The notes under the pieces: generated by a model
Seen by the model: the letters and a program-made list of their open reading frames with translations, nothing else
The model's database searches: none
Told to the model about the DNA's origin: nothing
In this document: positions 37,079 through 37,711 of the stretch, in pieces
Layout: every line of letters begins with the position of its first letter
Position numbering within the stretch: position 1 is the first letter of the stretch
Origin: a virus
IMG/VR virus record: IMGVR_UViG_3300013099_000018
Span: 1-64,000 of that record
DNA length: 64,000 nt
Direction: 5' to 3' (one strand)
Made by a program: the position numbers and the translations under genes

Positions 37079-37711
37079 TCAATTCTTTAAGTTACGAATA
37101 TAGATATGTGCTGACTCGGAACGTGTAGTAATTCTACCTATTTCAACTCCTAATTCTTCTGAAACTCTGTAGCTCAACATTAGAATAGCAAAGTAGTCTG
37201 GTGGATATCCATTTTCCATGTCGTTGCTTCTAAGCCATGCAAACGTTCTTAGTTTTCCATTTCGTATTTTGAAATCTATGATACACCAACATGGTGGTTC
37301 TGGATTAGATGTATCTTCTGGTCTGTATAGAACTGCTGTAGCTTGTCTTGTGTCGGGATTGTTTTTGAGTTTCTTGATTATGTTTTCAATTTGGTTTTTA
37401 TATGCTAAACGTTCTCCGTATGAGTAAGACCACATACCAGGCTCTTTTATACACCAAGCCACTCTTGTAGCGTAATCAAAGATAAATTGTTCACCCCATC
37501 GTTGAACTATGTATTGAGGAAGAACTTTTGAAGGCTTGTCCATGACTGGCTCTATGACTGTAATCGTTATTGGCTCTGCTTCCAAATAAGGTTGCTCTCT
37601 TTCACTAACATATATTTCGCCGTTTTCTAAAATATACCATAGAACTTCATAGTAGTCTTCTCCTAACTTGTTCTTAAAAATAAAATTAGGTGCATCGTTT
37701 TTAATTAACAT
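37079..37711 (-). CDS. thymidylate synthase-fold enzyme, possibly a dCMP (hydroxy)methyltransferase
   Basis: YSYGERL, TRQA, PPCW (catalytic Cys), RSNDMENGYPPD, SAHIY. Confidence 0.85.
   Translation of the reverse strand: MLIKNDAPNFIFKNKLGEDYYEVLWYILENGEIYVSEREQPYLEAEPITITVIEPVMDKPSKVLPQYIVQRWGEQFIFDYATRVAWCIKEPGMWSYSYGERLAYKNQIENIIKKLKNNPDTRQATAVLYRPEDTSNPEPPCWCIIDFKIRNGKLRTFAWLRSNDMENGYPPDYFAILMLSYRVSEELGVEIGRITTRSESAHIYIRNLKN

Follow-up and report, generated by a model that had tools for sequence, protein, structure and literature searches.

Among the main ways in which tailed bacteriophages counter host defences is base replacement at the nucleotide level, made by homologues of thymidylate synthase (TS). 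To our knowledge, no gene of an archaeal virus has been connected with such base replacement, and a search of the literature returned no archaeal virus gene linked to the TS type of base replacement. The N to D change in classical TS is reported to make a dCMP methylase (Liu & Santi 1992 and Hardy & Nalivaika 1992, as cited in later work). Five of the seven phage TS homologues with Asp177 that were tested made 5mdCMP in vivo, as did that of Xp12 (bioRxiv 10.1101/2024.12.05.627091). Phage Asp177 homologues have also been shown in vivo to make 5-hydroxy-dCMP, and an acidic residue at L143 has been described as the marker of a hydroxymethylase (PMC13326640). Additionally, in the metavirome genotype-phenotype analysis MetaGPA, positions 177 and 147 best separated cytosine-modified from unmodified phage contigs (PMC8670742).

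The locus described here carries a compact TS homologue with Asp at this selector position. It lies in a stretch of 64,000 nucleotides (the window), positions 1 to 64,000 of the IMG/VR virus record IMGVR_UViG_3300013099_000018, and the positions of its features are collected in Table 1.

Table 1. Positions of the features discussed; coordinates are those of the window unless a related element is named.
Feature	Position	Strand	Basis
ThyA-family gene, Asp-type, compact	37079..37720	(-)	ORF, Pfam, AF2, Foldseek
EPPCW, catalytic Cys motif	37286..37300	(-)	sequence read and alignment to E. coli ThyA
Motif RSNDMENGYPPD, residues 164-175	37196..37231	(-)	ORF translation and alignments
Codon of Asp175 (GAC)	37196-37198		
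Two small co-oriented genes (140 aa, 111 aa), upstream of and abutting the TS gene	37722..38457	(-)	ORFs
256-aa gene downstream of the TS gene	36210..36980	(-)	ORF
Major coat protein, 122 aa	29640-30008		PF12193
Larger proteins, weak matches to the coat fold	27121-28407; 1097-1777		
Large genes with intein (Hint) domains	3408-5699; 6085-7662; 14205-17753		
TnpB / Cas12f-like RNA-guided nuclease gene	25347-26597		PF07282
Weak phiEco32-like COOH-NH2 ligase match next to a class-II glutamine amidotransferase	46594-48480		
Second divergent TS paralogue, directly downstream of TS1	L090:6177-6845; L092:1516-2157		

The TS reading frame opens on a GTG codon and encodes 213 aa, and the start used by its relatives, an ATG at 37708, lies four codons into the frame and gives 209 aa. 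The protein matches Pfam PF00303 (Thymidylat_synt; E 2.3e-15, 56.9 bits, cut-off 24.3) as well as the PHROG thymidylate synthase families, and its best NCBIfam match is the methanogen-type TS family TIGR03283, at 117.5 bits under an equivalog cut-off of 174.55. An AF2 model built on 80 homologues (pLDDT 95, pTM 0.91) returned only TS-family chains among the top Foldseek matches in the PDB (E about 1e-13), with the highest TM-scores for MilA (0.80) and the compact phage dCMP hydroxylase AfhB (9iqu, 217 aa; 0.79/0.77). Within EPPCW, Cys144 corresponds to the E. coli nucleophile C146, Glu141 to the L143 position and Trp145 to the H147 position, while RSNDMENGYPPD supplies Arg164, Ser165 and Asp167, aligned with E. 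coli R166, S167 and D169, and places Asp175 at the Asn177 position. Further, E. coli H207 and Y209 align with His205 and Tyr207, and Y94 with a conserved Tyr (Y99/Y101). E. coli R126 is kept and R127 is replaced by Gln, a replacement found in the near viral relatives of Asn type and Asp type alike, so that phosphate binding is somewhat unlike that of classical TS. With the catalytic residues kept in the alignment, the viral homologue looks active as an enzyme.

The identity of the selector residue was established by several alignments. When compared with solved TS chains using HMMER, Asp175 falls on L. casei residue 229 (E. coli 177), and the second-best PDB match (1njc/1njd, an L. casei chain) itself has D in the Asn229 column. 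The translated E. coli thyA reads RSCDVFLGLPFN from residue 166, with Asn177, and the translated T4 gene 42 reads RSNDVVFGFRND from residue 168, with Asp179 of gp42 aligned to the viral Asp175. The initial annotation had proposed a TS homologue with the Asp of dCMP enzymes at 37196-37231 on the strength of these two motifs; the translations agree with the motifs it quoted, and the reading frame, the Pfam match and the alignments confirm the homologue and its coordinates exactly. The same GAC codon stands in four metagenome contigs that are independent of one another and differ at synonymous sites, and Asp is kept at the selector in five independent loci. A sequencing error or a pseudogene can be ruled out by the codon shared among independent contigs, a dN/dS of ~0.1 and the intact frame.

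The genome around the gene is that of a filamentous archaeal virus, as first proposed from the sequence, and this is borne out by a major coat protein matching PF12193 (34.9 bits), an Hjc resolvase, an STIV B116-like protein and a Cas4-like nuclease. The coat protein matches the rudivirus/lipothrixvirus coat family at the profile level only and had no tblastn match to any sequenced virus, and blastn of the TS region against known phages and archaeal viruses was likewise without a match; the virus probably represents a new adnavirus lineage. The same coat fold is weakly matched by two larger proteins. At 104,260 bp, the record forms a perfect palindrome centred at 52130/52131, where TTACAC meets GTGTAA; over window positions 52131-64000 it repeats the preceding 11,870 bp as their exact reverse complement (0 mismatches). 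The unique genome is thus about 52.1 kb long and lies wholly within the window. All genes past 52130 are mirror copies, that of the TS gene lying at 66859-67176 of the record. The palindrome may be either a fold-back at a hairpin telomere, giving a head-to-head replicative form, or an assembly artefact; a hairpin fold-back form would fit the Hjc resolvase.

Several other genes are recognizable. There are several GT4 glycosyltransferases, and three large genes, two of them for GT4 glycosyltransferases, contain inteins with matches to LAGLIDADG-type endonucleases. Near the palindrome centre, where the unique genome ends, a weak match to a phiEco32-like COOH-NH2 ligase (E 6e-4) adjoins a class-II glutamine amidotransferase (E 4e-8). 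The TnpB / Cas12f-like gene (PF07282, E 1e-21) has best plasmid matches by tblastn that are only about 38% identical (Deinococcus), and tblastn searches for a host, run with TnpB on plasmids and with the coat protein on phages, were uninformative. Five of the six Type II sites of M. jannaschii (CTAG, GGNCC, GATC, GTAC and CCGG) are purged or depleted in the viral genome, and the sixth, GTNNAC, is not depleted. Combined with a composition of 34% G+C and the many inteins, these sites suggest a Methanocaldococcus-like host, which should be treated as a lead and not as a finding.

Asp is an unusual selector residue in this family. A full HMMER scan covering 1.8 billion proteins yielded 163 representatives, of which 112 have Asn and 34 have Asp; those with Asp are mostly long enzymes (260-350 aa) of the T4/MilA kind in which position 147 is Thr. 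This second position follows the first, with L or M in 86 of 110 Asn types and T, W or C in 30 of 34 Asp types. The compact-type enzymes of cellular Methanobacteriaceae had Asn in all five sampled, and in the three cellular genomes examined (L052 and two of the five) the ThyA-like gene is single and no ThyX was found, so it must be the thymidylate synthase of the cell. The close viral and metagenomic relatives (57-97% identity) are divided between the Asp state (the query, P0001-3, P0005, L088-L091 and L101) and the Asn state (P0004, P0006-13, L092-L099 and L003). In the maximum-likelihood tree the Asp forms are one clade nested among Asn forms (core support 100/98), and in a broader tree this clade falls inside the compact archaeal-type group (98* support), apart from the long T4-like Asp group, with at least four independent changes from Asn to Asp in the compact group. 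Both trees indicate that Asp is a derived state in an Asn family and that its origin is independent. Pairwise dN/dS within the Asp clade is 0.09-0.16 over dS values of 0.14 to about 1.2, with GAC unchanged, a pattern that points to Asp being maintained under purifying selection.

Changes elsewhere in the pocket accompany the change at the selector. The core of the Asp clade (the query and L088-L090) shares just five residues that no Asn relative has. Four of these map to the active-site Cys and RSxD motifs: Leu to Trp at E. coli position 147, Ser to Pro at 176, Asn to Asp at 177 and Leu to Ile at 181. The change from L to W at 147 coincides in this clade with that from N to D at 177, and Trp145, which is not one of L, M or H, is private to it.

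The closest described enzymes share parts of this arrangement. Like the compact archaeal TS of TIGR03283, the viral protein is about 200-230 aa long, lacks the long C-terminal segment of bacterial ThyA and has the catalytic Cys, the RSxD and AH.Y motifs and Glu at the L143 position; unlike the cellular members, which have Asn177 and Met or Leu at 147, it has Asp and Trp, and it is at most about 45% identical to the cellular Methanobacteriota enzymes, with no cellular homologue above about that identity found in a search of 329 Methanobacteriota genomes. With T4 gp42 and the MilA-type hydroxymethylases it shares the TS fold, the catalytic Cys, the selector Asp and an acidic residue at L143, whereas those enzymes form the long group with Thr147 and the viral one is compact with Trp147. 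The alignment of the Asp with dCMP hydroxymethylases, as expected by the initial annotation, therefore holds, but descent from the T4-type dCMP hydroxymethylase lineage does not, since the tree places the query in the compact group. It should also be noted that the acidic residue at L143 was rejected as a marker of the product here: Glu occurs at this position in the dTMP-forming enzymes of cellular Methanobacteriaceae as well, and the hydroxymethyl marker is thus not transferable to the compact scaffold.

A derived and maintained Asp, the coupled changes in the pocket and the precedent of the family together make dCMP rather than dUMP the most likely substrate, a reading we hold with moderate confidence. 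We infer the substrate switch from the N177D/N229D mutants, from T4 gp42 and from the phage enzymes tested, transferring the Asn/Asp specificity rule from bacterial and phage enzymes to a compact archaeal scaffold. In the proposed reaction, Cys144 would attack C6 of dCMP while Asp175 would pair with N3 and the 4-amino group of the cytosine, and a one-carbon unit would pass from a methylene-pterin onto C5 to give 5-methyl-dCMP or 5-hydroxymethyl-dCMP. Host kinases and the host replisome would presumably carry the product into viral DNA. The Xp12 dCMP methyltransferase and the L. casei N229D and E. coli N177D enzymes are parallels, in that a single change from Asn to Asp redirects methylation to dCMP.

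The alternative that survives best, although we consider it unlikely, is an ordinary thymidylate synthase that converts dUMP to dTMP on a scaffold tolerant of Asp and boosts dTTP for an AT-rich genome. Thymidylate synthases of the ThyX type are known from filamentous archaeal viruses, and both the nearest relatives and the cellular homologues of the viral enzyme are Asn-type proteins of the same size and architecture. Against dTMP synthesis, the N to D change in classical TS specifically converts the enzyme to a dCMP methylase, and the viral Asp is kept by purifying selection together with the pocket changes at 147, 176 and 181. As regards the TIGR03283 equivalog, the protein scores below the cut-off and has Asp, not Asn, at 177, the residue of uracil O4/N3-H recognition. 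A further argument against simple dTMP supply is that the Asp-type gene of the related element L090 adjoins a second TS paralogue. On balance, the use of dCMP is the best-supported of these readings.

The pair of small genes upstream of the viral TS gene also adjoins the Asp-type gene in L088, L089 and L091; neither protein had a Pfam or PHROG match, and the 140-aa protein had no Atlas match. The 256-aa gene downstream had no tblastn match in related loci and no Pfam or PHROG match. In the otherwise syntenic L089, the TS gene (5437-6075) is followed by the orthologue of 35755-36120 at 6173, which leaves no room for it; this reading frame is therefore likely a recent insertion and probably not part of the TS system. 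No recognizable nucleotide-metabolism fold was found among the neighbours of the TS gene by Pfam, PHROG or Atlas. An Asp-type gene 84% identical to the viral one occurs in L090, and its closest Asn-type sister in L092. These two elements are syntenic and of a different kind from this virus, with the order DUF2284, TS1, the second TS paralogue, radical-SAM/SPASM, XPD-like helicase and radical-SAM, amounting to two or three radical-SAM/SPASM proteins per cluster, and L092 has a family-B DNA polymerase in addition. The second paralogue lacks the YxYGxR segment, and its Cys is kept in L092 and replaced by Pro/Ser in L090. TS is the only gene common to the virus and this cluster. Because L090 has Asp and L092 has Asn in syntenic elements, the Asn/Asp switch occurs inside one conserved gene cluster. 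The cluster may be a nucleotide or DNA modification module, and the L090/L092 pair hints that the TS family may take part in such modules and not in simple dTMP supply.

Whether the product reaches the DNA of the virion is a separate question, and here the genome lends no support and in part argues against it. Six-frame profile searches of the whole 104-kb record found no match to PF00692, PF03819, PF02223 or PF00383 in profile-detectable versions, and no dCMP deaminase, dUTPase/dCTP deaminase, thymidylate kinase/dNMP kinase, MazG or ThyX was found in the record; a dNMP kinase had been reported as lacking at the outset, and this extends to the full record. Accessory genes were also absent by Pfam (about 50 ORFs of the window), PHROGs (10 ORFs) and Atlas (the 140-aa neighbour). 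Restriction sites tell a similar story. Compared with second-order Markov expectations for the unique genome (1-52130), GATC (158 expected), GCNGC (41), GGNCC (36), GGCC (24), CCGG (19), CGCG (12) and GGTACC (8) were each observed 0 times, and GCGC (1 observed, 19 expected), CTAG (26 observed, 171 expected) and GTAC (69 observed, 152 expected) were depleted. The syntenic Asp-type L089 likewise lacks GATC (22 expected) as well as CCGG, CGCG and GGCC (only 2 each expected), and its CTAG and GTAC sites are depleted too. In phages with hmC in place of cytosine, 2.4% of sites are avoided, as opposed to 55.8% in relatives without the pathway (PMC6286503), and GGNCC sites in M. jannaschii owe their protection to 5mC (PMC11033074). 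If each C carried a substituent at position 5, the genome should thus not need to purge GGNCC, and the avoidance of restriction sites makes a complete replacement of cytosine unlikely.

These observations separate the virus from phages with established replacement pathways. Unlike T4, it encodes no T4-like dCTPase, dNMP kinase or DNA glucosyltransferase to partner the enzyme. In Xp12-type phages all C is replaced and the enzyme is paired with a 5mdCTP deaminase, whereas this virus has no deaminase and a sequence composition that argues against full replacement. Both the lack of accessory genes for a modified-base pathway and the strong avoidance of sites, which fits unmodified DNA, also count in favour of an ordinary thymidylate synthase. 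It had been proposed that the modified DNA is possibly decorated further by the glycosyltransferase, methyltransferase or sulfotransferase-like enzymes of the virus. That proposal gained no support, as the glycosyltransferase, FkbM methyltransferase and sulfotransferase-like genes are 20-35 kb from the TS gene among virion-type genes, and no link of these genes to DNA was found. Of the original suggestion that the virus uses dCMP and carries modified DNA, the first part gained support from the derived and selected Asp and the change at position 147, and the second lost it through the avoidance of sites and the missing accessory genes. We therefore offer only as a tentative and rather doubtful proposal that 5mC or 5hmC is put into the DNA of a filamentous (Adnaviria-type) virus, whose host may be a hyperthermophilic methanogen, by means of a convergently evolved, compact archaeal-type dCMP (hydroxy)methylase, probably with a non-folate methylene-pterin.

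The same observations bear on a second alternative, which appears improbable: an enzyme that acts on dCMP for the sake of the nucleotide pool, for example through 5mdCTP deaminated to dTTP/dTMP by a dCTP deaminase of the host, or as a drain on the dCMP of the host. The avoidance of sites suggests that cytosine in the virion DNA lacks general protection, and the genome is 66% A+T, both of which suit such a role, and phages with Asp177 homologues do make dTTP via 5mdCTP-selective deaminases (bioRxiv 10.1101/2024.12.05.627091). Conversely, the virus encodes no deaminase, and the detour would have no obvious gain over the normal dUMP route. The last alternative, action on another cytosine nucleotide (CMP, as in MilA, with a non-DNA product) or as a 5-hydroxy-dCMP synthase, is very improbable: the best structural matches do include MilA, a CMP hydroxymethylase, and AfhB, which like the other 5-hydroxy-dCMP synthases (RB69 gp48 and DLP3 gp80) is a compact TS-fold protein with Asp177, but no biosynthetic partners are nearby, and the diagnostic D169N, an Asn at E. 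coli 169, is absent from the viral protein, whose Asp167 at this position rules out the 5-hydroxy-dCMP synthase (PMC13326640).

The use of dCMP thus remains the preferred reading, and an independent change from Asn to Asp, with its predicted switch in specificity, is carried here on the compact archaeal ThyA scaffold by a filamentous archaeal virus. An apparently dCMP-directed enzyme in a genome that avoids restriction sites would mean that modification is partial, that it has a different purpose (pool rerouting or self-marking, for instance) or that the Asn/Asp rule fails in this scaffold. The Asn-type and Asp-type enzymes are 75-84% identical, occur in the same kind of element (L092 and L090, respectively) and differ by few pocket residues, and this pair provides a natural experiment in which the specificity switch is directly testable in the compact scaffold. 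Should the virus indeed place 5mC or 5hmC in its DNA by this route, no other archaeal virus sequenced before it would have a pathway for the replacement of cytosine at the nucleotide level, and the switch from Asn to Asp would have arisen repeatedly, at least four times, in the compact TS family.
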